Virus record (IMG/VR): IMGVR_UViG_2695420411_000008
Strand: one strand, 5' to 3'
From: a virus
Taxonomy: Duplodnaviria; Heunggongvirae; Uroviricota; Caudoviricetes
Length of the DNA stretch: 27,739 bases
Position 1 is the first letter of the stretch, and the number at the start of each line of letters is the position of its first letter. Shown piece after piece: positions 11,388-24,189 of this stretch. The notes under the pieces were generated by a model, which worked only from the letters and a program-made list of their open reading frames with translations, searched no databases and was not told where the DNA came from. A program made the position numbers and the translations under genes.

Positions 11388-12332
11388 ATGATTACCATTG
11401 ATAAGGCCACCGTAGACGCTGCTGGCGTATTCCTGGTCGGCGAACTTGAACGCCTCGACCAGACGCTCAACCTGCCGCTGGTTAGCTATAAGTGGTCGCG
11501 CGATATGCCTCTGCGTAGCGATGTTTCTATCGCCGACGAGCAGTCATCTTTCACCAACACCGATCTGGCAGCCGCTGGTGGTGTAAACCCGAACGGTAAA
11601 AACTGGATAGGCAAAAACTCCACCGCGCTTCCGCAGACCAATCTCTATATCGAGAAGACCGCACAGCCGCTTAGCCTGTGGGGTATGGAGCTGGGCTGGA
11701 CCTTGCCGGAACTGGCTTCAGCGCAGCAGGTTGGACGCCCAATCGACAGCCAAAAGTATGATGCCATGCAGCTGAAATGGAACATGGACATCGATGAGCA
11801 GGTTTATATCGGCGACAGCGACATGGGTATCACCGGCCTGTTGAACCTTTCCCAGGTAACGCCGATCAGCGCAGCCAAAGCGTGGGCCACCGCCAGCCCT
11901 GACGAAATCGTACAGGACTTTAACCTCATCCTCTCCCAGGCATGGGTGACTTCAGGTTACGCAATTTGCCCGAAAAAAGTCGGCCTGGCGCCGGAGTTAT
12001 TCGGCCTGCTGGCAAGCAAGAAGGTTTCTGATGCGGGCAATATCTCCGTGCTGGAGTACGTGAAAGTTAACTGTATCGCGTTCCAGGAAAACGGCGAACC
12101 GCTGGAAATCGTGTCCATGAAATGGGCATCCAAACGCGGCGCGGCTGGTGCACACCGCGTTGTAGCGTACACCCAGGATGAGAAATTCATTCGCTTCCCG
12201 CTGGTGCCGCTGCTGAATACCCCGCTGGAATACCGCGGCCTGTATCAGCTGACAACCTACTACGGCCGCCTGGGCCAGGTGGAAACCCCGTACGGCAACA
12301 CCATTGCCTACATGGACGTGCCTGCAGCTTAA
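11388..12332 (+). CDS. Major capsid protein (DUF2184-type)
   Basis: 314-aa ORF with AAGGA RBS, in the expected position after the DUF2213 and accessory genes. Confidence 0.8.
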   Translation: MITIDKATVDAAGVFLVGELERLDQTLNLPLVSYKWSRDMPLRSDVSIADEQSSFTNTDLAAAGGVNPNGKNWIGKNSTALPQTNLYIEKTAQPLSLWGMELGWTLPELASAQQVGRPIDSQKYDAMQLKWNMDIDEQVYIGDSDMGITGLLNLSQVTPISAAKAWATASPDEIVQDFNLILSQAWVTSGYAICPKKVGLAPELFGLLASKKVSDAGNISVLEYVKVNCIAFQENGEPLEIVSMKWASKRGAAGAHRVVAYTQDEKFIRFPLVPLLNTPLEYRGLYQLTTYYGRLGQVETPYGNTIAYMDVPAA

Positions 12333-12369
12333 CCCCTATGGCGGGGCAACCCGCCGTTCTGGAGAGAAC

Positions 12370-12735
12370 ATGAAATATCTCGTTAATACCGGGACCGTGC
12401 TGCGCTTTGCCGATGGTTCGCAGGTAGAACTTACCCCTGGCGTGCACAGCTTCGATAAGCGCGTTACCGAGCACTGGGCTTTTGGTGCGCATGCGCAGGC
12501 CATCAGTGAAGAAGATCTGAAGCAGAGCCAGGGAGGCGAAGACCTCTCGCTTAAGATCTCGGCGCTGGAATCCACCATCGCCGGCCTGCAGCAGCAGGTG
12601 ACGGATAAGGATGTCACTATCGCAGAGCAGTCAGACACCATCGCCGGCCTGCAGCAGCAGCTGGATGATCTGACTGAGAAGCTTGCATCACAGGAGGCTG
12701 GCAATGCCAAAAAACAGCCTTCTGCCAACAAGTGA
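12370..12735 (+). CDS. Hypothetical head-associated coiled-coil protein with an internal repeat
   Basis: GGAGA RBS; contains TIAGLQQQ twice, encoded by a perfect 24-bp direct repeat. Confidence 0.55.
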   Translation: MKYLVNTGTVLRFADGSQVELTPGVHSFDKRVTEHWAFGAHAQAISEEDLKQSQGGEDLSLKISALESTIAGLQQQVTDKDVTIAEQSDTIAGLQQQLDDLTEKLASQEAGNAKKQPSANK

Positions 12736-13111
12736 TCAATTCCGCACCGACTTTCCTGAGTTTGCCAACACCACCCGCTATCCAGACGCCGCGGTAAATT
12801 TTTACCTCTGCCAGGCTGACGCCATCCTCAATCAGGATGTGCACGGCGACCAGTTCGTTTACCTGGCGGAGCTGTTCACTGCGCATTACGTTGAGCTGCG
12901 TGGTCGCGCGCTGGCGGGCGCCTCTGGCGGCTTTGTCAGTAGCGGTGGCAGCGGCGTAGCGTCGTCGAAGTCTGTCGATAAGGTCAGCGTCAGCTATGAC
13001 AACTCGGGCACCATCAACCCTGACGCCGGATTCTGGAATAAAACCGGATACGGCCAGGAGTTCTTCTGGTGGTGGTTGATGTTCGGTGCTGGCGGGCGGC
13101 AACTGTTATGA
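12704..13111 (+). CDS. Head-tail connector/adaptor protein (DUF4054-like)
   Basis: GGAGG RBS, ATG at 12704 overlapping the previous gene's end; position after the capsid gene. Confidence 0.5.
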   Translation: MPKNSLLPTSDQFRTDFPEFANTTRYPDAAVNFYLCQADAILNQDVHGDQFVYLAELFTAHYVELRGRALAGASGGFVSSGGSGVASSKSVDKVSVSYDNSGTINPDAGFWNKTGYGQEFFWWWLMFGAGGRQLL

Positions 13112-13614
13112 GCGGCGTGAAGGTCAGGGCAGACAATGCCGCATCCGTGCTGGCCGGGCTGGACAGAGTGTCCCGCATGGATGTGCTGGTGGGCATCCCT
13201 GAATCCAACGCTGTGCGTGAGGATGGGGAAGATCTCAACAACGCTGAGATCGCCTATCTGCAATCCACCGGGGCGACGGTCCGGCTCGGTGGGCAGGAGG
13301 TGACCTTGCCGCCGCGCCCGTTCCTGGACATCGGTATTGAGGATTCGGCAAAGGTAACTGCTGAGCACCTCAAGGCGGCCGCAGGTCATGCGCTCGATGG
13401 CAATTTCTCTGGTGCTGAGCGCGAGCTTACCAGCGCAGGTCAGCTGGCATCGGATGCCGCGAAGCGCGTTATTACGGATGGTGATCGGCTGGCACCAATA
13501 TCCGATTTCACTATCCAGAAACGCAGAGAGCGCGGGTACGCAGGCATTAAGCCGCTGTATGACCATGGCTATCTGCTTCGCTCGATCACCTTCGTTGTGA
13601 GAGGTAAAAAATAA
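13108..13614 (+). CDS. Head-tail joining / virion morphogenesis protein
   Basis: ATG overlaps upstream stop (ATGA); position in connector module; family assignment uncertain. Confidence 0.45.
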   Translation: MSGVKVRADNAASVLAGLDRVSRMDVLVGIPESNAVREDGEDLNNAEIAYLQSTGATVRLGGQEVTLPPRPFLDIGIEDSAKVTAEHLKAAAGHALDGNFSGAERELTSAGQLASDAAKRVITDGDRLAPISDFTIQKRRERGYAGIKPLYDHGYLLRSITFVVRGKK

Positions 13615-14000
13615 TGCCTTTTCTCGATGTCACCGATGTGTTGTCGGATCCTGATTTTTGCGATTACACGCTGGTCTGCATCCGCAACCACCAGGCGAAG
13701 GATGCTGACGGCTTCGTGACCAATACGCCGGAGGATATTCCGTTTAACGGCGTGGTCACCGTCGACCGCTCGCTGGAAGCCCGGCGCATGGCGGCAGGGC
13801 AGGTTATTGGCGGCGCAATCCTGGTGGTTACCACCTTCCGCTTAACGCAGGGCCTGCCCGGTCAGGATGCTGACGTGGTGCTCTACAACGGGCGGCATTA
13901 CCGCGTAACGTTTGTGGATCCGTACACCTCATATGGTGCCGGGTTCGTTCAGGCCCACTGTGAGCTGGTGGAGTTTAACGGAGGTACGCCAGTTGAATGA
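13614..14000 (+). CDS. Phage structural protein (connector / tail completion region)
   Basis: ATG overlaps upstream stop; 128-aa ORF in the operon. Confidence 0.5.
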   Translation: MPFLDVTDVLSDPDFCDYTLVCIRNHQAKDADGFVTNTPEDIPFNGVVTVDRSLEARRMAAGQVIGGAILVVTTFRLTQGLPGQDADVVLYNGRHYRVTFVDPYTSYGAGFVQAHCELVEFNGGTPVE

Positions 14001-14535
14001 CACCACACATCCCGGATACCTGACGCCTACCAGCCAGCCGCCGCAGTACGACCAGGCGCTTGAGCGCGAGCTCAGCCGGTGGATTCGCGGTGTTTCTGGC
14101 CTGCCGGATGGCATGGCCATACCACGCTTTACTGACCCTCAGCCAGCGATCCCGGTGCTGGGCACCAACTGGTGCGGGTTTGGTATCACAGACTTCCAGG
14201 ACACAGCCAACCCGGCATCGGTCACCAGGGACGACGACACCGACTACCAGTGGCAATTCGAATCGCTGGTGGTGCTCTGCTGTTTCTACGGCCCTGCAGG
14301 CCAGGCTTACGCCAAAACGTTTCGTAACGGTCTGTTCGTGTCCCAGAACAACGCTGAGCTAAATCGCGTCGGCCTCACGCTCGGCGAGGTGGGCCGAATC
14401 ATCCCGGCGCCCGAGCTCGTTAACAACCAGTGGCAGCGTCGCTACGACCTGTCTGTGACGCTACGCCGCAAAACGGTACGCGAGTACGGCATCAAATCCA
14501 TCCTCTCTGCTCCAGTACAATTTTTCGGAGATTAA
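13993..14535 (+). CDS. Phage structural protein (tail completion / sheath-associated)
   Basis: Probable TTG start with GGAGG RBS 8 nt upstream; ORF-track start at 13912 would overlap the previous gene by ~90 nt. Confidence 0.45.
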   Translation: MNDTTHPGYLTPTSQPPQYDQALERELSRWIRGVSGLPDGMAIPRFTDPQPAIPVLGTNWCGFGITDFQDTANPASVTRDDDTDYQWQFESLVVLCCFYGPAGQAYAKTFRNGLFVSQNNAELNRVGLTLGEVGRIIPAPELVNNQWQRRYDLSVTLRRKTVREYGIKSILSAPVQFFGD

Positions 14536-14538
14536 ATC

Positions 14539-16029
14539 ATGCCTAACGGCTTATCTGTATCACGCGTCGTTCGCGTGCAGGTCGCGCTCGCCGTTCGCGC
14601 GGCGGCCGGGCGTAACTTCGGCGCGCTGCTGGTTCTCGGCACCGCCGACGTAATCACTGCCCCGGAAGTGATGCGCCTTTACCAGGATATCGAAAGTGTC
14701 GCCACCGACTTTGGCACTACCGCTGAAGAGTACAAGGCGGCAAACCTTTACTTCCAGCAGTCGCCGCAGCCCCGCGATCTTTATATCGGAAAACTGGAAC
14801 GCGCCTCCAGCCCGGCAACGGCCGGCAAGCTCACTGGTGCTGTACTGACCTCTGCAGAGCAGGCAATCGCAAACTTCACCGCGGTTGACGATGGCGCGAT
14901 TAAGATCTCGGTGGACGGCACTGTTAAAACCGTAACGGGTATCGACCTGTCAGCGGTGACCGATCTGGCCGGAGTAGCGACGGCCATCACTGCGAAACTT
15001 ACCGGCACCGCCGTTTCCTACGTGGCCGGCTCGAATCAGTTTGTGGTGACGTCTTCCACTACCGGGGCCACCTCAGCAATTGGTATTCCTGTTGCTGCCG
15101 GCACTGGCACTGACCTGGCGCCGCTGCTGGGCATTGACTCAGCGCATAACCCAACCGTGTCAAACGGCCAGGATGCTTCATCTTCAGTGCTGCCGTCGGT
15201 GAACACAGCGCTGAACTACTCAGCCGACTGGTACGGCCTGGTTATCGCCGATACTGCAATGACGGACCAGGACCATATCGATGTTTCTGCCCTGATCGGC
15301 TCTGCGAGCGATTCCCGGGTGTACGGTGTGACGACTGCGGCGGCCGAGGTCCTGGACTCAACCAGCACCACGGATATTGCCTACAGGCTGAAAGCCGCCG
15401 GTTATGGCCGCACGTTCTGCCAGTACAGCCAGGTGCCTTATGCCGCAGCCTCTGCCTTTGGTCGCGCGTTCACAGTAAATTTCCTGGGTAACAACACCAC
15501 CATTACCCTGAAATTCAAGCAGGAACCGGGCATTACTGCCGAGACGATCACCGCGCAGCAGGCCGATACGCTCAAGGCAAAAAACTGCAACGTATTTGTG
15601 CGCTACGCCAACGATACCGCCATCATCCAGGAAGGCGTGATGTCCAACGGCGATTTCTTCGACGAGCGCCACGGCCTCGACTGGCTGCAGAATTACGTCC
15701 AGAACAACCTCTGGAACCTGCTTTACACCTCAACCACCAAAATCCCGCAGACCGAAGCGGGCGTGACGCGCCTGGTGACCAATGTCGAACAGTCGATGGA
15801 CCAGTCTGTAAACAACGGTCTGGTGGCACCGGGAATCTGGAACGGCGGTGACGTCGGACAGCTGACATCAGGCGATATGCTGACCAAAGGCTATTACGTT
15901 TACGCGAACCCGCTCAACGCCCAGGCGCAGGCAGATCGTGAAGCGCGTAAGGCGCCGGTGATTCAGGTAGCAACCAAACTGGCGGGGGCTATCCACTTCG
16001 CTGATGTATTAATCGACGTGGTGCGCTAA
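14539..16029 (+). CDS. Tail sheath protein (DUF3383-type)
   Basis: 496-aa ORF followed by tube, chaperone and tape-measure genes; Thr/Ser/Ala-rich central insertion. Confidence 0.8.
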
Positions 16030-16040
16030 GGGGGCACTGA

Positions 16041-16481
16041 ATGAGCACTTATTCTTTTCTGGATATCACGGGGTCAATGACTGGCCCCACCGGGGTGATT
16101 GACCTCGGCGCCGGTTCTGCCAACTCCGAAGAGGGCATTACCATCGCCATGGTCGAAAACAAAAACACCATGACGATCGGCGCTGACGGCGAGGGCATGC
16201 ACTCCCTGCACGCCGGCAAGGCTGGAACGGTAACCGTTAACCTTCTGAAAACCTCGCCGGTGAACAAAAAGCTGTCTCTGGCCTACAACGCGCAAAGCCA
16301 GTCCTCAGCGCTGTGGGGTAATAACGTCTTTGTGTTCCGCAACACTGCATCTGGCGACATCATGACCGCGCGCGGCGGCGCCTTCCAGAAGCACCCCGAC
16401 TGGCAGAACGCCAAAGAGGGCGGGACGGTGGCCTGGGTGTTCGACTGCATCAAAATTGACCCGTTCCTGGGGGAGTATTAA
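16041..16481 (+). CDS. Tail tube protein
   Basis: 146-aa ORF between sheath and tail assembly chaperone. Confidence 0.7.
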   Translation: MSTYSFLDITGSMTGPTGVIDLGAGSANSEEGITIAMVENKNTMTIGADGEGMHSLHAGKAGTVTVNLLKTSPVNKKLSLAYNAQSQSSALWGNNVFVFRNTASGDIMTARGGAFQKHPDWQNAKEGGTVAWVFDCIKIDPFLGEY

Positions 16482-16484
16482 TTC

Positions 16485-16910
16485 ATGGAAATTACTATCA
16501 AGTATCAGCAGTACCGTATCGCTAAGTTAAGCGTTTTCGAACAGCTGAAGGTATCCCGCAAGCTGCTGCCGGTTCTGGCGGGTCTGGTTTCTGACTTCCG
16601 TAACATCCAGACGAAGCTGAATGCCAAAGACACCGAAGGCGCGATGGAAAGTATTCTTCCGAAGATCGCTGGCGCCGTTTCCGGCCTCAGTGATGATGAT
16701 GTGAATGCGATCCTTTTTCCCTGCCTGCAGGTGGTGGCGCGCAAACACTTGAGCGCCTGGGTGCCGGTGTGCCAGCAGGGCACCATGGCCTTTGACGATA
16801 TCGACCTGTTCGTGATGCTGCAGCTTGTGGCGCGGGTGGTCGCCGATTCGCTGGGAAATTTTTTGCAAGGACTTCCTACCAGCGAGACGAACACCCAGCC
16901 TGCGGAATAA
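16485..16910 (+). CDS. Tail assembly chaperone (G-like, short form)
   Basis: 141-aa ORF immediately upstream of the tape measure gene; slippery sequence near its 3' end. Confidence 0.7.
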   Translation: MEITIKYQQYRIAKLSVFEQLKVSRKLLPVLAGLVSDFRNIQTKLNAKDTEGAMESILPKIAGAVSGLSDDDVNAILFPCLQVVARKHLSAWVPVCQQGTMAFDDIDLFVMLQLVARVVADSLGNFLQGLPTSETNTQPAE

Positions 16911-17098
16911 CCTTTAACACCCTGCCGGGCGGTGAGGATTACATCCTTCGCCCGGCGCTCGCCTTCAACCTCGATCAGAAAGACCTCGACAGCGGTGCAG
17001 TGGACCTGTGCCGCATCGCGCTGCTTAACGATTACCTCGATATGCGTGACGATAACGACGCGCGCGTAGCCAAATGGAGAGCCCAGAACAATGGCTGA
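16485..17098 (+). CDS. Tail assembly chaperone, -1 frameshift fusion product (GT-like long form)
   Basis: GGGAAATTTTTTG at 16853-16865; the -1 frame is open from 16796 to TGA 17096-17098, has no start codon of its own and reads as plausible protein. Confidence 0.55.
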
Positions 17099-19070
17099 TA
17101 CTATCCGTGATTACCTGGTCTCTCTGGGGTTCGATATCGACGGCGCGGGCCAGGCGAAGTTTGAAGCCACGCTCAAAGGTGTGGCCGCGAACGTCGTAAA
17201 ACTGGGGGCCATAGTTGAGTCGACGGGGCTGGCCATTGTGGGCTTCACCGCCTCGATCGCCAGCGGCCTTGATAAACTCTACTGGGCCGCGGAACGCACC
17301 GGGGCATCGGTCAACGGCATCAAGGCGCTTGGCTATGCTGCCTCACAAACCGGCTCCAGCGCCGAGGCTGCCCAGAACTCACTGGAGAGCCTGGCGCGCT
17401 TCATGCGCAGCAATCCCGGCGCCGAAGGCTTCCTGAACCGCCTGGGGGTGCAGACCCGGGACGCTTCCGGACAGATGCGCGACATGTCGGCTATCTTCAC
17501 CGGCGTCGGCCAGCGCCTCAGCAGCATGCCCTATTATCGAGCCAATCAGTTCGCGCAGATGCTGGGCATTGACGAAAACACGCTGATGGCAATGCGGCGA
17601 GGAATGTCCGGCTTCACGGCTGAATACCAGTCGATGATGCAGAAGACAGGCTTCGATGCTGACAGGGCCGCGCAGCAGTCCAACAAGTTCATGACCTCAA
17701 TGCGCAACTTCGTTTCGCTACTGGGGATCTTGCGCGATAAGGTTGGCTCGAATCTGGCCGGCGGCCTGAGCGGCACGCTGAACAATCTCAGCAAGCAGAT
17801 GCTGGAGAACTGGCCGAAGATAGAGGGCGTGGTCACGAAGATAGTGAAGGGGGTGCTCTTTGCTGCTGATGTCATTACCCAGATGGCGTGGCGCGTCTCG
17901 CAGGCGGTAGGCGGCCTGATTGAGTGGTTTAAAAAGCTGCCGCCGGATATACAGCAGCTAATCATGCTGGTGTCCGGGCTGGTTTCGGCGTGGCAGCTGC
18001 TTAACGCTGAGTTCCTCAAATCGCCGATAGGTATCGTAATCGCGCTAGGCTCGGCGCTGTTCGCGCTTTACGACGACTACAAAACCTGGAAAGAAGGCGG
18101 TCAAAGCCTGCTGCCCTGGGATAAATGGGAGCCAGAAATAGAGGCTGCCCTGAAATCGCTTGGCGAGCTGCGGGATTCTGTGAAGGCGATAGGGGTTGAA
18201 ATCGCAAAGCTGCTCAATATCAACCTCAAAAACTGGACCCTTAAAGGCGACATCGACAACCTCACTAAGCAGTTCGGTGAGTTTGGCAAGATGATTAAGA
18301 TGATTGGCGACCTGATAAACGCCATCAACGAGGGGCGTTGGAAAGATGCTTATGCGATCGGCAAGAACCTGCTGGCACAAGGGCAAGGCCAGGATGCTCT
18401 ACCTGCAGTATCTGACAGCGCTAACAATACTGCTGACTGGATAGAGGGCAAGACGGGGTTCGACCCGCGAAGCATCGGGAAAACAATAAACGGGTGGATT
18501 TTCGGCAAAGAAGAGGGCGGCTCAGACCAGCAGGAGAGCGGCCCGGGCAAGACGCTGGCCGACCGTAACAACAATCCTGGCAACCTGCGCCCCGTCGGCG
18601 GCACCGGTTTTACCTCTCATCAGACGCCGCTTGATGGTTGGATGGCAATGGCCAGGCAGATCCGTCTTTATTTCACCGGAAAAAGCGCGGCCGCCGGGTA
18701 TGAAAAACTCCAGTCAATATGGGACATCATCCACAAATACGCACCTGCCAGCGACAACAACGACCCCGAGGCCTATTCGAACTTCGTAGCCAATATGATG
18801 GGCGTGGGCGCTAAGGACACGCTGAACCTGAGCGACCCGCAGCAGTTCAGCAACCTTCTGCAGGCCATGTCCAGGAAGGAAGGTTACGGTCAGTGGAATT
18901 CCCCATTGGCCAGCGTTGCCGCTACGCAGGCAGCCGCGCAGATCAGCCAGGAAACGAACATCAATATTTACGGCGCGAGCGACCCGGCATCCACTGGCCG
19001 GGAGGTTGCCGATCGTCAATCCGGCGTTAATTCCCGTCTTACTCAGCAGCTACAACCGAGGGTCTACTGA
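17091..19070 (+). CDS. Tail tape measure protein
   Basis: 659-aa largely helical protein directly after the chaperone pair; distinct C-terminal globular region with NNNPGNLR motif. Confidence 0.85.
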   Translation: MADTIRDYLVSLGFDIDGAGQAKFEATLKGVAANVVKLGAIVESTGLAIVGFTASIASGLDKLYWAAERTGASVNGIKALGYAASQTGSSAEAAQNSLESLARFMRSNPGAEGFLNRLGVQTRDASGQMRDMSAIFTGVGQRLSSMPYYRANQFAQMLGIDENTLMAMRRGMSGFTAEYQSMMQKTGFDADRAAQQSNKFMTSMRNFVSLLGILRDKVGSNLAGGLSGTLNNLSKQMLENWPKIEGVVTKIVKGVLFAADVITQMAWRVSQAVGGLIEWFKKLPPDIQQLIMLVSGLVSAWQLLNAEFLKSPIGIVIALGSALFALYDDYKTWKEGGQSLLPWDKWEPEIEAALKSLGELRDSVKAIGVEIAKLLNINLKNWTLKGDIDNLTKQFGEFGKMIKMIGDLINAINEGRWKDAYAIGKNLLAQGQGQDALPAVSDSANNTADWIEGKTGFDPRSIGKTINGWIFGKEEGGSDQQESGPGKTLADRNNNPGNLRPVGGTGFTSHQTPLDGWMAMARQIRLYFTGKSAAAGYEKLQSIWDIIHKYAPASDNNDPEAYSNFVANMMGVGAKDTLNLSDPQQFSNLLQAMSRKEGYGQWNSPLASVAATQAAAQISQETNINIYGASDPASTGREVADRQSGVNSRLTQQLQPRVY

Positions 19071-19645
19071 TGGATATTTTATCGGTCATCTTCCGGCTGC
19101 AGTCTCGGAAAATAGGTATTTTTGTACCTGACGTGGTGGTGTCGGAGAAGCATGTTGATGCCCTGGAAATCACTGAACATCCGGTGGAGTTTGGCGCCGC
19201 CATAAACGACCACGCCTATAAGCGCGCCAGCGAGGTCACTATGGAGTGCGGGTTTGCCGGCGGCGGGTCGGTACTCGACCTGGTAAATCTGTCCAGCATA
19301 GGCTTGCGGGTTGGCGAGAGCCCAAGGGAGATTTATCAGCAGTTGCTGGATCTGCAGAAATCCCGGGTGCCGTTTGATGTTGTTACCGGCAAGCGCACCT
19401 ACAGCAATATGCTGATACGCGCTATCGAGGCCACGACGGACCGAACCAGCGAAAATGTGCTGTCATGCGTTCTGACGCTGCGGGAAGTGATCATGTCGGA
19501 TACGCAGAGCATCACTGTTACGGATAAGGCCAACATGCAGGAGGGAGTCAGCACCGCGCCAGTACAGAATACAGGGATGAAATCTCTGGTGCCGACCAGC
19601 AGCTCATCTGTAATTCAAAAGATAGCCGATTTTGCGAGGGGATAA
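19070..19645 (+). CDS. Tail/baseplate assembly protein (distal tail region)
   Basis: ATG overlaps tape-measure stop (TGATG); position only. Confidence 0.5.
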   Translation: MDILSVIFRLQSRKIGIFVPDVVVSEKHVDALEITEHPVEFGAAINDHAYKRASEVTMECGFAGGGSVLDLVNLSSIGLRVGESPREIYQQLLDLQKSRVPFDVVTGKRTYSNMLIRAIEATTDRTSENVLSCVLTLREVIMSDTQSITVTDKANMQEGVSTAPVQNTGMKSLVPTSSSSVIQKIADFARG

Positions 19646-19950
19646 TGAGCGTTAATGAGATTCCGATGATCCCTGATAACCAGGAGTTTCGCATCACCCT
19701 GGGCGACATAAGCTACACGCTCCGCGTGCTATGGCGCGACGATGCTGGCTGGATAATGGACGTTATGGATAGCGGCGCGCAGCCTCTGTTAATGGGCGTC
19801 CCCCTGGTGCCGGGGGTTAACCTTTTGGCTCAGTATCCGGATCTGGGGATATCTGGCGCACTGGTGGTCATGACAGACAACGGAGCCCCTGAATACCCGA
19901 CGAAAACAAACCTTGGTGCCTCGAGCCATCTTTATTTTGTTCAGGAATAG
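19645..19950 (+). CDS. Small baseplate-associated protein
   Basis: ATGA overlap with upstream stop; 101 aa; position only. Confidence 0.45.
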   Translation: MSVNEIPMIPDNQEFRITLGDISYTLRVLWRDDAGWIMDVMDSGAQPLLMGVPLVPGVNLLAQYPDLGISGALVVMTDNGAPEYPTKTNLGASSHLYFVQE

Positions 19951-19953
19951 CCC

Positions 19954-21024
19954 ATGACTATTAACTGGAATCGCCATTTTGAACTGCGGCTTCTGAACGA
20001 CAAGGGGAATGGCATATCCCTGTCGGACTTTAAAGTTACCTTCGCAATCGACTGGTTTAACTCGATGTGGCCACGTGTGGCGACGCTTAAAATTTACAAC
20101 CTCAAGCGTGACACAATCACCCGGATTACGGGGGATGAGTTTTCTCGCATTACCATCATAGCCGGTTATAACGGCCTGGCGCCGACGGTTACTGAAAGCG
20201 AGGTTGGGCAGGTTACCGAGATTTCATCTGAGCAAACCGGCCAGACGCGCGGGCAAAATTACGGAGTCATTTTTGATGGGGAGATTCGTTTTACGATAAC
20301 CGGGCGCGATAATCCTACCGATATTTTTACGCTAATTCAGTCGGTAGATGGTCATAAGGCGTTCAACGAAGCCGTATCGTCCGGCAGCCTGGCGGCAGGA
20401 TATAAGCTTGCCGACGTGCATACACTTCTGATGAAGGACTTTTCGCCTTACGGCATCACCCAGGGCATCACCGGGCAGTTCCCTGACAGGGTGATGCCAC
20501 GCGGTCGCGTCTTCTTCGGCGCAACGCGCGACTACATGAGCAACCTAGCGGCGCAGTGCGAGGCTAACTGGCAATTTGTCGACGGCCAGCTGCAAATGGT
20601 GCCTGAGAATAAATATCTCCATGAAGCGATCGTGCTTAACACCAAAACTGGCCTGGTCGGTATGCCTCAGCAAACCATGGGGGCAGGCGTTAATGTGCGC
20701 TGTCTCATTAATCCAAACATTCGGGTTAACGGGCTTATTCAGTTGAACCAGGACTCGGTGTATCGCTCGCAATTACCGAACGATGAGATCCAAAGATCAC
20801 AGGCAAGGATTACTGAGGCAAATGATAATGGTAATCTTAGTACAGGCAGCGCGACGCTTGCGCAGCCCGCCAGTGTGGCAACTGATGGCGTTTACATAGT
20901 TCAGTCAATCAGCTACACCGGCGATACGAGAGGGAATCCGTGGTATATGGATCTCATGTGTATGGCCAGAGGGGCGCGTGATTTACAATCGAATACGGCC
21001 CTACAGCGAACGGCTCCACAATGA
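19954..21024 (+). CDS. Baseplate hub protein (Mu gp44 / P2 gpD-like)
   Basis: 356-aa ORF preceding the spike, W-like and J-like baseplate genes. Confidence 0.6.
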   Translation: MTINWNRHFELRLLNDKGNGISLSDFKVTFAIDWFNSMWPRVATLKIYNLKRDTITRITGDEFSRITIIAGYNGLAPTVTESEVGQVTEISSEQTGQTRGQNYGVIFDGEIRFTITGRDNPTDIFTLIQSVDGHKAFNEAVSSGSLAAGYKLADVHTLLMKDFSPYGITQGITGQFPDRVMPRGRVFFGATRDYMSNLAAQCEANWQFVDGQLQMVPENKYLHEAIVLNTKTGLVGMPQQTMGAGVNVRCLINPNIRVNGLIQLNQDSVYRSQLPNDEIQRSQARITEANDNGNLSTGSATLAQPASVATDGVYIVQSISYTGDTRGNPWYMDLMCMARGARDLQSNTALQRTAPQ

Positions 21025-21377
21025 AAAAAATACTTTTTTTGGTTTCTTTAGCATTCGTCAGTTTTTCTTCTACAGCGGCAAACACCGCTTATATGAAGTG
21101 TGGTCCCTTTACTTTCTCAACCTCATCAAGCAACGACGGATATCCGAGGATAAACGGAGCAAAGCCTGATAGTCAGAAGGTGACATTCCTCAAAAAAGAG
21201 GGAGATTATGACAATATTAAAATGCAATGGATTGTCATGAATGAGAATTCTGGGCAGCGCTATGGTCTTGATTATATAAAACGCAATGGGAGAGGGATAC
21301 TCAATGCCGAGGCCATCAGAATGAACATGAATGAACCTCGAGTGTTTGGAACTTACGACTGCGTGAAGGCTAAGTAA
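21021..21377 (+). CDS. Secreted hypothetical protein (118 aa) in an AT-rich insertion
   Basis: ATGA overlap with hub stop; signal peptide MKKILFLVSLAFVSFSSTAA; two Cys (27 and 114); AT-rich relative to flanking tail genes. Confidence 0.6.
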   Translation: MKKILFLVSLAFVSFSSTAANTAYMKCGPFTFSTSSSNDGYPRINGAKPDSQKVTFLKKEGDYDNIKMQWIVMNENSGQRYGLDYIKRNGRGILNAEAIRMNMNEPRVFGTYDCVKAK

Positions 21378-21387
21378 TTTAATAAAG

Positions 21388-21408
21388 GCGCCGGAACTAC
21401 CGGCGCTC
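21388..21408. terminator. Hairpin shared by the convergent inserted genes
   Basis: GGCGCCGG / AACTA / CCGGCGC(T) stem-loop between convergent stops; T-rich tract on the minus-strand side. Confidence 0.5.
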
Positions 21409-21410
21409 AG

Positions 21411-21761
21411 TTACTCGTCTTTAAAACTTATAATTTTGTACTGCTCCAGTACTTCTGAAAGCTCCTTTGATGTCAGATTTTGTATTTCGATCGTACCTTT
21501 TTCAGTGGTTACCGTTATTTTTTTTGATGATCTGGTCTGTAACCATTTTCTCGCTATCGATGCAATGGCGATACAAGCTGGTGATGATGTGATAACGGTA
21601 ATAGATATTTCGAGAATTGTGCCAATAGCGCCAGGAGAATCACCCGTTCTGACTCTTTTACTTACTACATAGTCATTAGCGGGTATGTTATCCTGGATTA
21701 CAGGAAGTAACTCTTTCCAAATAGCTGGAGTAAATTTTATGGTTGTTTCTGATTTTGGCAT
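21411..21761 (-). CDS. Hypothetical membrane protein (116 aa), convergent partner in the insertion
   Basis: Minus-strand ORF with a central hydrophobic segment AIGTILEISITVITSSPACIAIASIA; weak RBS; AT-rich. Confidence 0.45.
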   Translation of the reverse strand: MPKSETTIKFTPAIWKELLPVIQDNIPANDYVVSKRVRTGDSPGAIGTILEISITVITSSPACIAIASIARKWLQTRSSKKITVTTEKGTIEIQNLTSKELSEVLEQYKIISFKDE

Positions 21762-21941
21762 AAAGGTTTCAGGCCCCTATCGAGAGAAGCTAAAAATTGC
21801 CTACCGGCTTTTCCTTAGCAGCCTGTATCTTGCTACAAATCACGACGTTACCGTGGTTCTAAGCAAAACCTATATTAAGAGCTGCAATGAAGATAAATAG
21901 CACGCATTAACTCACCCTCAAATCCTGACATTTGATCAGTA

Positions 21942-21962
21942 ACCCGCCTCGGCGGGTTTTTT
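21942..21962 (+). terminator. Intrinsic terminator upstream of the baseplate spike gene
   Basis: ACCCGCC-TC-GGCGGGT hairpin followed by TTTTTT, 18 nt before the ATG at 21980. Confidence 0.6.
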
Positions 21963-21979
21963 ATTACCTGGAGAAAGCT

Positions 21980-22633
21980 ATGCCAGTATCAGCCCGCGCG
22001 CAGGACGGCAACGAATCGCAGACTCTTGAGGCGCACCGCCACGCCATTTTCGGCAGCCTGCGCGTGGCTTTGCCGGGGATCATCCAGTCCTTTGACCCTG
22101 AAACAGTGACATGCACCGTGCAGCCAGCCATCTACGGTCAGCGGCTCAGCGACGATGGCGCTCTGGTTTCTGAGGAGATACCGATTTTGCCAGACGTTCC
22201 AGTGGTGTTCCCCCGCGGCGGTGGCTGCACGTTAACCTTCCCGGTAAAGGCCGGTGACGAGTGCCTCCTGGTCTTCTCCGATCGCTGCATCGACTTCTGG
22301 TGGCAGAGCGGCGGGGGGCAGGAACCGGTTGACCCGCGCCAGCATGACCTGAGTGATGCGTTTGCCATTGTGGGTCCGCAGTCGCAGGCGCAGAAAATCA
22401 GCAGCATCAGTACCAGTGCGGTTGAACTGCGCAGTGACGACGGTGGAACAAAACTGAGCCTTAACCCTTCATCCGGAGCGATAACGGGAACCGCGCCGGG
22501 AGGCTTCAACCTTAACGGTCTGAAAATTCTGCCTGACGGCCGCCTGCAGCTGGTGGATGGCTCCATGGTTGATAAGCATACGCATGGCGGCGTGGAAGTC
22601 GGCGGCAGCAATACGAAACCACTGGGAGGGTAA
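21980..22633 (+). CDS. Baseplate spike / assembly protein V-like
   Basis: GGAGA RBS then ATG at 21980; the ORF-track start at 21932 would run through the terminator hairpin; position before the W- and J-like genes. Confidence 0.7.
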   Translation: MPVSARAQDGNESQTLEAHRHAIFGSLRVALPGIIQSFDPETVTCTVQPAIYGQRLSDDGALVSEEIPILPDVPVVFPRGGGCTLTFPVKAGDECLLVFSDRCIDFWWQSGGGQEPVDPRQHDLSDAFAIVGPQSQAQKISSISTSAVELRSDDGGTKLSLNPSSGAITGTAPGGFNLNGLKILPDGRLQLVDGSMVDKHTHGGVEVGGSNTKPLGG

Positions 22634-22635
22634 TT

Positions 22636-22989
22636 ATGCGATACCGACGCGAAGACGACGACGGGGACTACACCTTCGGCCAGGGCGATGACACCTTTCT
22701 GGTCAACTCACCCGAGTGCGTGGCCCAGGCCGTTAAAACGCGCTTTGAACTGTGGAAGGGGCAATGGTTTCTGGACACAACCGAGGGCACACCCTATATC
22801 CAGTCGGTTCTGGGAAAGCAAAGGCCTGAGGTTTATAACCTTGCGATCAGGGATCGCATCAGCACCACACCTGGCGTTCTGTCCATACTGGCCTTTGATA
22901 CCGTGAATGAAAGCACGACACGCCGGGTAACGTTCACAGCCACCATAAACACTATCTACGGACAAACCACCCTTACCAGCGAGGCATAA
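22636..22989 (+). CDS. Baseplate protein W-like (GPW/gp25 family)
   Basis: 117-aa ORF between the V-like and J-like genes. Confidence 0.7.
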   Translation: MRYRREDDDGDYTFGQGDDTFLVNSPECVAQAVKTRFELWKGQWFLDTTEGTPYIQSVLGKQRPEVYNLAIRDRISTTPGVLSILAFDTVNESTTRRVTFTATINTIYGQTTLTSEA

Positions 22990-24189
22990 ATGGCCCTCAA
23001 TTTGGACACGCTCGGCTTATCGGCAACGGTAACCGCTGAGGGGATCAGCGCGCCTGATTACCAGACAATACTGGACACCCTGACCAACTACTTTAAGCAG
23101 ATATATGGCAGCGATGCTTATCTGGATCCTGACAGCAAAGACGGGCAGATGGTGGCGCTGGTGGCCCTGGCTATTCACGATGCTAACAACACGGCCATTG
23201 CTGTTTACAACAGCTTTTCGCCTGCCACCGCTTATGGCGCAGGGCTGAGCAAGAACGTGAAAATAAACGGTATTAAAAGGAGAACGGCTACCAACTCAAC
23301 GGTTGATTTGCTGCTTACCGGCGCGGCCGGTACGACCATTTCGAATGGCTCCGTCAGGGATAAGAATGGCCTGGTCTGGAGCATGCCGGCTTCCGTGGTA
23401 ATTGGTTTAGACGGGACGGCGACGGTCACTGCCACCTGCTCAAATAGCGGCGCAGTGGCCGCGCTGTCCGGAACGGTCACGACCATTAACACACCGACCC
23501 GCGGCTGGACTTCGGTAACTAACCCCGCGGCGGCCACCGTCGGATCCCCGGCGGAAACCGACGCAGAGCTGCGCATCCGGCAGGGGCAGAGTGTCGCGCT
23601 ACCCTCCATCACGCCGTTTGAAGGGGTGGACGGCGCGATAGTGAACGTTGCAGGGGTTACACGTCACAAGCTCTACGAGAATGATACCGGCACGACCGAC
23701 AGTAATGGGCTGCCGCCACACTCTATCTCTGCCATCGTGGATGGCGGCGATCTGACTGAAATCGCCCAGGCCATCCGGGGCAATAAGGGGCAGGGGGTGT
23801 CAACGTATGGTGCGACAGCCGTCACGGTGCCGGATAAATACGGTAATCCCCATGTGATTCGCTTCTCCCGGTCAACGGATGTTCCTATTTATGGACATAT
23901 AACGCTGAAAGCTTTCGCGGGTTACACATCACAAATAGGTAAGGAGATTCAGCAGGCCGTTGCGGATTACATCAACGACCTGACGATCGGTGATTCGGTG
24001 CTGCTGAGCCGCATTTATTCACCTGCCAACCTCGGGGTGGTCAGCGGCGGTAGCGCGCGTTATTACGACATCCAGGAATTACTCATCGGTAAATCAGCAG
24101 GATCCGTAGCATCGGCAAACATAACCATAGCCTACGACGAATCAGCTTCATGTAAACCGGCAAACATCGTTATCACGGTGACGTCATGA
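22990..24189 (+). CDS. Baseplate J-like protein
   Basis: 399-aa ORF following the W-like gene and preceding the I-like gene. Confidence 0.8.
   Translation: MALNLDTLGLSATVTAEGISAPDYQTILDTLTNYFKQIYGSDAYLDPDSKDGQMVALVALAIHDANNTAIAVYNSFSPATAYGAGLSKNVKINGIKRRTATNSTVDLLLTGAAGTTISNGSVRDKNGLVWSMPASVVIGLDGTATVTATCSNSGAVAALSGTVTTINTPTRGWTSVTNPAAATVGSPAETDAELRIRQGQSVALPSITPFEGVDGAIVNVAGVTRHKLYENDTGTTDSNGLPPHSISAIVDGGDLTEIAQAIRGNKGQGVSTYGATAVTVPDKYGNPHVIRFSRSTDVPIYGHITLKAFAGYTSQIGKEIQQAVADYINDLTIGDSVLLSRIYSPANLGVVSGGSARYYDIQELLIGKSAGSVASANITIAYDESASCKPANIVITVTS

Follow-up and report, generated by a model that had tools for sequence, protein, structure and literature searches.

For phage lambda, the gpG/gpGT pair of tail chaperones was reportedly worked out by Levin, Hendrix and Casjens (1993) and by Xu, Hendrix and Duda (2004, 2013, 2014), and the E/E+E′ frameshift of phage P2 is said to have been described by Christie et al. 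in 2002. The slip sequence of lambda is G_GGA_AAG. In lambda, two overlapping open reading frames (ORFs), the second without a start codon of its own, lie between the major tail (tube) gene and the tape measure gene (PMC5009743), and such a frameshifted tail chaperone is a general feature of long-tailed phages (Xu et al. 2004, summarised in PMC5009743). The best-studied chaperone of an E. coli myovirus is gpE/gpE+E′ of P2. There, the shift occurs at TTTTTTG without downstream structure (PMC3091744), and its efficiency is reported to be 2-3-fold above that of lambda (PMC5009743). Here, a new locus of this well-known phage arrangement is described; it changes no concept. The locus lies in IMG/VR virus record IMGVR_UViG_2695420411_000008 (Caudoviricetes), a stretch of 27,739 nucleotides (nt) hereafter called the window, and the element in question is its tail assembly chaperone gene, in which a programmed -1 ribosomal frameshift of the lambda G/GT and P2 E/E+E′ kind is highly likely.

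The short, zero-frame product of this gene is a chaperone of 141 amino acids (aa) encoded at 16485-16910 on the + strand and equivalent to gpG, gpE or TAC-N. Near its 3′ end lies the slippery run GGGAAATTTTTTG (16853-16865, + strand). Read from the ATG at 16485, the codons across the run are CTG (16851), GGA (16854), AAT (16857), TTT (16860) and TTG (16863), which places three overlapping heptamers of the X_XXY_YYZ type in the register that tandem -1 slippage requires: G_GGA_AAT (16853-16859), A_AAT_TTT (16856-16862) and T_TTT_TTG (16859-16865). The initial annotation, made from the sequence without database searches, had named the second and third of these and the codon register agrees with it; the first was absent from its list. 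The distance from the heptamers to the zero-frame stop is 55 nt, the 13-mer has no second copy in the window (with up to one mismatch allowed, chance would give 0.05 matches), and the +1 frame is shut at 16915. The -1 extension, the equivalent of gpT, E′ or TAC-C, comprises 78 codons and a TGA (16862-17098, + strand), of which 16862-16910 (49 nt) is dual-coding; joined to chaperone residues 1-126, it gives a predicted fusion of 204 aa. Reading in the -1 frame is uninterrupted between 16796 and the TGA at 17096-17098, with a translation identical to the string first proposed. The earlier statement that this frame ends exactly where the tape measure gene begins needs a small amendment: the two do meet, but the TGA overlaps the ATG at 17091-17093 by 8 nt (ATGGCTGA) rather than abutting it. 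This overlap of stop and start recurs across homologues.

The assignment to the lambda G/GT type, also made at the outset, is borne out on each feature open to computation: it agrees with the gene context, the in-register heptamers, the conserved -1 extension, the frozen slip codons and the annotation of the homologous phages Mulock and Magia. As in lambda, the tube and tape measure genes are separated by two overlapping ORFs, the second of which has no start of its own, and G_GGA_AAT departs from the lambda slip sequence in the last base only. The two systems differ in that no sequence similarity is detectable between them and lambda is a siphovirus whereas the present phage is a contractile-tailed myovirus. 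Moreover, the site described here is a 13-mer of three overlapping heptamers, and the comparative data favour UUU over AAG/Lys as its core. With P2, the locus shares an E. coli myovirus context, the sheath-tube-chaperone-tape measure order, the heptamer T_TTT_TTG, the lack of downstream RNA structure and an 8-nt overlap between the extension stop and the tape measure ATG (ATGAGTAA in P2). In the P2 record NC_001895, the TTTTTTG site was confirmed and the 142-aa E+E′ product reproduced. P2 differs in the size of its products (91 aa for E and 142 aa for E+E′, against 141 and 204 aa here) and in its single heptamer (GGT TTT TTG). Alignment with known GT-type chaperones, a check proposed in the initial annotation, had a divided outcome: the frameshift-annotated pairs of Mulock and Magia are homologous to the predicted fusion, but P2 E+E′ is not significantly so (hhalign of a 41-sequence fusion alignment, probability 0.4%, E 0.16, with 15 columns aligned in the last helix only).

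The conservation of the site was assessed on homologous loci from annotated phages, IMG/VR viral contigs and GTDB genomes, which comprise 149 distinct chaperone-to-stop sequences, 144 with intact proportions and 143 alignable across the extension. The whole 13-mer was found in 127 of the 149 distinct loci. One of the two peptide patterns used in the GTDB scan (RVV[AV]D[SN]LGN) overlaps the site and biases the set toward keeping Gly-Asn; this bias cannot affect synonymous choice, and the patterns of the IMG/VR scan sit elsewhere in the protein. In a codon alignment of the 144 distinct homologues, top-codon usage and entropy were compared over 58 degenerate columns with at least 85% amino-acid conservation, where ordinary conserved codons show a top-codon usage of 45-85% and an entropy of 0.7-1.8 bits. 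Near-zero synonymous variation occurs at Asn125 (AAT 100%, 0 bits), Phe126 (TTT 100%, 0 bits) and the six-fold degenerate Leu127 (TTG 99%, 0.06 bits) and at no other of these codons. Gly124 is encoded by the otherwise unfavoured GGA in 94% of sequences (0.37 bits). The two other Phe codons of the gene, taken for comparison, vary normally (Phe18, TTC 65%, 0.93 bits; Phe103, TTT 64%, 0.94 bits). Since Asp121 (GAC 53%, 1.00 bits) and Ser122 (TCG 60%, 1.74 bits), just upstream of the slip site, vary freely, the freezing is not regional. Measured computationally against this internal control in the same sequences, the slippery run is under nucleotide-level purifying selection.

The loci that depart from the 13-mer are informative about the heptamer used. 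Four lack G_GGA_AAT, with CTC or CTT before GGA, and retain the other two heptamers. In L149, L163, L165 and L168 (GGC GGT, GGC AGT or GGT GAT before TTT TTG), as well as in L140 and L154 (TTT TTT), only T_TTT_TTN is retained. Burkholderia phage Magia reads GGC CCT TTT ATC, with C_CCT_TTT aligned to A_AAT_TTT and just four Ts. With the exception of one Salmonella locus, L142, discussed below, all divergent loci have in common a UUU Phe codon after a U.

That the ribosome slips at this site, and not the RNA polymerase, is what we infer. Transcriptional slippage, in which the polymerase would add one U on the T6 run and the fusion mRNA would be read in a single frame, is improbable, even though the site does hold a homopolymeric T6 run, T7 occurs in the divergent relatives L140, L153, L154, L159 and L167, a 7T DNA variant encodes exactly the predicted fusion, and homopolymer runs are known slippage sites (PMC5009743; PMC4066793). 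Selection at the site reaches GGA (94%) and AAT (100%), which lie outside the T run, complete the heptamers and are irrelevant to a polymerase, and Magia has only four Ts yet a canonical in-register C_CCT_TTT. Six Ts are also short for productive slippage, which in bacteria usually needs about 8-9 or more.

The extension contains a match to Pfam DUF6889 (PF21829) at 16976-17089 on the + strand, where residues 37-74 of the translation of 16868-17098 score 47.6 bits (cut-off 23.9; E 1.4e-12). It also matches PHROG 4364 (E 1e-17), which is listed under 'unknown function'. Conservation of the extension in related phages, a point raised in the initial annotation, was indeed found: in the 143 alignable homologues it is conserved as protein, starting at the first codon past the slip site, with the 80% consensus FARTP..RD..P..G...LP.GE....RP....L..G.VDL..IA..ND.L....DN..R...WR..N. 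Across the same sequences, the column entropy at the three -1 codon positions is 0.65/0.55/1.31 past the zero-frame stop, 0.74/0.67/1.29 in extension codons 17-40 (upstream of any start codon in the window) and 0.79/0.60/1.01 in the dual-coding overlap. The most variable position in the overlap is the -1 frame wobble, which is zero-frame position 2; the -1 frame is therefore the dominant constraint there. By these computational measures, the -1 frame is under protein-coding selection from the slip site onward.

The claim that the -1 frame has no start codon stands in part. No ATG, GTG or TTG occurs between 16796 and 16999, but a GTG is present at 17000 and an ATG at 17042, 32 and 18 codons, respectively, from the end of the frame. 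Between the stop that opens the -1 frame and the slip site, 139 of the 143 homologues are free of start codons. Within the extension, the first ATG, GTG or TTG appears at codon 61 of 78 in 49 homologues, at codon 55 in 15 and at codon 47 in 21, and before codon 30 in just 41. The extension thus has no conserved independent start.

In the public annotation, a separate gene has nonetheless been called here. The RefSeq record, annotated by the Prokaryotic Genome Annotation Pipeline (PGAP), contains a coding sequence (CDS) for a 32-aa 'DUF6889 family protein' at 17000-17098 on the + strand (locus L010, 5001-5099, NZ_CP062811). Its GTG start cuts into the DUF6889 match, and a GTG at the equivalent position is found in 37 of the 143 homologues, in 21 of which it is the first available start. 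The RefSeq CDS very probably covers only part of the 204-aa frameshift product. A chaperone with a separate 'DUF6889 family protein' was the RefSeq annotation among the best 40 matches and in two loci inspected individually, one match carrying 'hypothetical protein' instead. The locus type is present in 337 of 5,426 complete E. coli genomes (~6%), including enterotoxigenic E. coli (ETEC) H10407 and O103:H2 12009, and also occurs in many other Enterobacterales. Phage records hold small 'hypothetical protein' or mis-named ORFs at the extension, such as those of 58 aa in yong1 and 50 aa in ST16-OXA48phi5.2. For the homologous phages Mulock and Magia, the frameshift product is already annotated in GenBank.

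That the -1 region is an independent small gene, translated from an internal start such as the GTG at 17000 without any fusion, is very improbable. Besides the RefSeq/PGAP CDS of this locus, a separate DUF6889 gene is called in 10 other E. coli genomes inspected, with start and length varying, and the small ORFs of yong1 and ST16-OXA48phi5.2 point the same way, as do the 13 of 143 homologues with an ATG at extension codons 17-21 and standalone calls (e.g., MLDTLPGGED...). Such a gene would leave unexplained both the coding pattern in extension codons 1-46, upstream of the GTG, and the frozen slip site. Furthermore, the GTG lies inside the DUF6889 match and in a minority of homologues, the first possible start is as late as codon 61 in 49 of the 143, and no Shine-Dalgarno sequence is evident before 17000. 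Least credible of all is the absence of recoding. On that view, the slippery run would be a by-product of a conserved LGNFL, which does constrain most of the 13 bases, while the -1 frame would stay open as a relic or through a compositional accident; long spurious ORFs are indeed numerous in phage DNA of high G+C content (e.g., the antisense ORF at 16505-16894). Conservation of the amino acids cannot explain the 100% preference for AAT over AAC and for TTT over TTC, the 99% use of TTG among six Leu codons or the GGA at 94%. The -1 frame, for its part, scores above the Pfam threshold, shows third-position-biased substitution over 78 codons and 143 loci and always ends overlapping the tape measure start.

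Under the programmed ribosomal frameshift, most ribosomes would read 16485-16910 and release the 141-aa chaperone, and a minority would slip back one base on GGGAAATTTTTTG and read on in the -1 frame until the TGA at 17096-17098. In the resulting 204-aa product, a predicted disordered linker would join chaperone residues 1-126 to a small helical domain at the C-terminus (DUF6889). The slip would most likely take place with tRNA-Phe on the invariant UUU (16860-16862), a codon that would occupy the A site for A_AAU_UUU and the P site for U_UUU_UUG, and G_GGA_AAU may contribute. The predicted junction reads ...SLGNFFART... for a shift on G_GGA_AAT or A_AAT_TTT and ...SLGNFLART... for one on T_TTT_TTG, and the corresponding predicted tryptic junction peptides are VVADSLGNFFAR (G_GGA_AAU or A_AAU_UUU) and VVADSLGNFLAR (U_UUU_UUG). 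The frozen GGA codon argues that A_AAT_TTT matters, whereas the divergent loci that retain only T_TTT_TTN argue that T_TTT_TTG suffices; for this reason, the shift is not assignable to one heptamer. The roles of the two domains are assumed by analogy with lambda, where G binds the tape measure protein and T binds the tube. On the gpG/gpGT model, the tape measure protein would be coated by the N-domain common to both isoforms, and the tube protein would be recruited through the extension; the two isoforms would both be required, at a fixed ratio, and the virion would be expected to contain neither.

Reporter studies in E. coli offer some guidance on the heptamers. The H_HHU_UUY class, including A_AAU_UUU, C_CCU_UUU and U_UUU_UUU, is among the efficient classes when stimulated, as its A-site tRNA re-pairs cognately (PMC4066793). 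In the supplement of the same study, the frameshifting percentages without stimulator, with the IS911 stimulators and with the IS3 pseudoknot are 0.070, 0.355 and 11.4 for AAAUUUU, 0.21, 3.0 and 11.7 for CCCUUUU, and 0.118, 0.247 and 0.77 for UUUUUUG; a further row (0.069, 0.112 and 1.05) is taken to be that of GGGAAAU, a label inferred from the U, C, A, G order of the table rows (PMC4066793). The dnaX gene of E. coli and the IS3/IS911 signals resemble the present site in that X_XXZ_ZZN heptamers are decoded by E. coli ribosomes, but they depend on a hairpin or pseudoknot 3′ of the heptamer, on a Shine-Dalgarno-like element 5′ of it, or on both (PMC4066793), whereas here there is no conserved downstream structure and an upstream Shine-Dalgarno-like element is weakly suggested.

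The candidate for such an element is GGGTGGTC (16834-16841, + strand), a speculative Shine-Dalgarno-like stimulator from which the three heptamers downstream are 11, 14 and 17 nt away. Other Arg and Val codons vary more than those of GGGTGGTC (Arg117, the rare CGG, 85%; Val118, GTG, 94%), which could pair with the 3′ end of 16S rRNA; this is a weak lead. GGTGGTC is also found upstream of the P2 slip site (L175, 870-876), at a distance of 2 nt there versus 17 nt here. GGGTGGTC could be a stimulator or a coincidence of Val-Val codons. A tentative proposal, which we regard as possible but rather doubtful, is that GGGAAATTTTTTG is a selected composite site whose three overlapping heptamers would allow up to four tRNAs (Gly, Asn, Phe, Leu) to re-pair in the -1 frame, with GGGUGGUC perhaps assisting, and which would reach a useful level of frameshifting without downstream RNA structure. 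Consistent with it are the frozen codons beyond the minimal T_TTT_TTG (GGA 94%, AAT 100%) and the near-background values of each heptamer alone in stimulator-free E. coli reporters.

Several observations have to be set against a programmed ribosomal frameshift. A conserved downstream hairpin or pseudoknot, which signals of the dnaX and IS3/IS911 type have 5-9 nt after the heptamer, was not detected: RNAalifold, run on 36 diverse homologues between the slip site and +110 nt, gives a consensus of two invariant pairs at -0.24 kcal/mol, and the RNA of the window folds no better than shuffled controls (z +0.87 to -1.10). Without a stimulator, the heptamers of the site lie near the 0.055% background of the E. 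coli reporters, which leaves a useful level unaccounted for (PMC4066793 supplement). In L142 (Salmonella enterica strain s1, CP191473.1, 1893-1905), the site reads GGA AAT ATT TTG and the T run is broken (GGGAAATATTTTG); G_GGA_AAT is the sole canonical heptamer left and the -1 extension is intact, so that this locus is either a decaying prophage or a sign that the first heptamer works alone. The support for the frameshift at this locus and in its close relatives is computational throughout, the Mulock and Magia annotations being predictions, and literature searches found no proteomic data for this phage group. Finally, no support is drawn from the in-frame fusions present in databases, which have 7 Ts and stem from assemblies that are draft or error-prone.

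These database fusions were examined individually. With the 204-aa fusion as query, two database proteins carrying both Pfam domains were retrieved. P0002 was rejected as a natural fusion on account of its contig, whose genes are all fragmented by indels, and P0017 with its cluster, including E. coli ISC7 CDL28562.1, on account of 7 Ts instead of 6. About ten such 'pre-shifted' T7 fusions of 212-213 aa were found (P0017, P0121-P0133; L012, 2475-2490), from E. coli ISC7 and several Logan assemblies. The 7T allele is present in none of the 5,426 complete E. coli genomes, in which the best matches to the 7T sequence are all at 99.4%, equal to one gap; the 7T fusions probably reflect sequencing errors in the homopolymer or rare mutants. 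When the 78-aa extension was used in an exhaustive HMMER search, 23 matches were returned, none of them a genuine fusion. Most were fragments of 43-79 aa with varied starts, next to two indel-ridden read-throughs and repeat proteins, and P0146 was discarded as a chimera with a siroheme-synthase-like N-terminus. The 7T fusions do show that the -1 continuation gives a sensible, Pfam-recognisable protein. A modelled structure is available for P0017, the 7T relative that is 57% identical to the predicted fusion. Its N-domain (residues 1-136) is predicted with confidence (predicted local distance difference test, pLDDT, about 73-97), the last helix ending exactly at the slip site; it is followed by a linker of low confidence (residues 138-161) and a C-terminal helical element (residues 166-211, pLDDT 54-85).

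Among homologous systems, Klebsiella phage Mulock (CPT_Mulock_014/015) shares 57% identity in the N-domain, the identical 13-mer and a DUF6889-type extension. Burkholderia phage Magia (CPT_Magia_015/016) is 34% identical in the N-domain and also has a DUF6889-type extension, but carries C_CCT_TTT in place of the 13-mer. The tape measure chaperone pairs of both phages are annotated as frameshifted (predicted), whereas the present prophage is not so annotated in RefSeq and neither, judging from the best 40 matches and the loci inspected, are the roughly 337 related prophage loci of E. coli. The TAC-N/TAC-NC pairs of Pakpunavirus and Vandenendeviridae (e.g., Pseudomonas phage Adele) accompany tube and sheath families of the KPP10/E217 type, as found here, and their TAC-N has a poly-T slip motif at its 3′ end, GTTTTT, which is shorter than the present run (PMC12846349). 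In that 2025 paper, a downstream 'hypothetical protein' was reread as the C-terminal domain of a frameshift product by the same comparative logic (PMC12846349). These phages belong to another family and have large virulent genomes. Three records attributed to Bacteroidota or Bacillus hosts carry an enterobacterial-type tail module: Elizabethkingia phage EKP1 (L006; identical slip motif, 66% DNA identity to the window), Chryseobacterium sp. 18061 (L129; slip motif GGAAATTTTTTG, chaperone 60% identical in protein) and Bacillus sp. AFS073361 (L173, a 395-bp contig; chaperone 78% identical). Their host attribution, or possible contamination, deserves a check.

The locus is part of the tail module of a temperate myovirus-type E. 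coli prophage. From position 12000 to 24000, the window is matched at 100% identity by the E. coli Res13-Sevr-PER07-33 chromosome and by three further complete E. coli genomes; the identical prophage is carried by E. coli NCTC11023. DNA relatives at 65-75% identity include Citrobacter phage Omnitron, Hafnia phage yong1, Yersinia phage YP3, Salmonella phage SEN34 and Klebsiella phage Mulock. In the tail module, the genes for sheath, tube, chaperone and tape measure follow one another, with baseplate genes downstream. The tail sheath gene (14539-16029, + strand) matches Pfam DUF3383/E217_gp31_N (E 3e-140), and its SEN34 and Magia counterparts are annotated as tail sheath; the tail tube gene (16041-16481, + strand), directly 5′ of the chaperone, matches KPP10_Orf10/Phage_Tube_PhiTE (E 9.5e-58). 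The chaperone itself matches Pfam Phage_TAC_15 (PF21822) over residues 8-128 (109.4 bits, cut-off 22, E 2.3e-31) and PHROG 1688 'tail assembly chaperone' (E 5e-53), and is named 'phage tail assembly chaperone' in RefSeq; no PDB chain was matched by sequence, and no NCBIfam model. Two ORFs run antisense to the chaperone on the - strand (16505-16894, 129 aa; 16527-16868, 113 aa). The sheath and tape measure genes are likewise overlapped by antisense ORFs, and those over the chaperone are probably compositional artefacts, not genes. The interval that separates the chaperone stop from the tape measure start yielded no promoter or terminator pattern.

The tape measure protein (17091-19070, + strand, 659 aa) matches PHROG 2276 'tail length tape measure protein' (E 9e-222). 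Its residues ~475-635 match endolysin and transglycosylase PHROGs (phrog_873, E 4e-32; phrog_7182), and homologues carry the annotation 'transglycosylase SLT domain protein'; the C-terminal part probably carries a peptidoglycan-degrading domain. In the baseplate module, a 116-aa gene on the - strand (21411-21761) matches Pfam EACC1, 'Effector Associated Constant Component 1' (E 1e-6), and has the same name in RefSeq. It looks like an inserted accessory gene (moron) and is possibly related to conflict or defence systems.

Recognition of the frameshift amounts to an annotation correction for about 6% of complete E. coli genomes, by which a spurious mini-gene is removed. DUF6889 and PHROG 4364 would thereby gain a placement as the C-terminal domain of the long chaperone isoform, a domain that, on the lambda analogy, probably recruits the tube. 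The slip site is an unusually clean natural case, combining overlapping heptamers and frozen synonymous sites with no detectable RNA stimulator, and the question of how phage chaperone frameshifts attain efficiencies at the percent level in E. coli could be tested on it.

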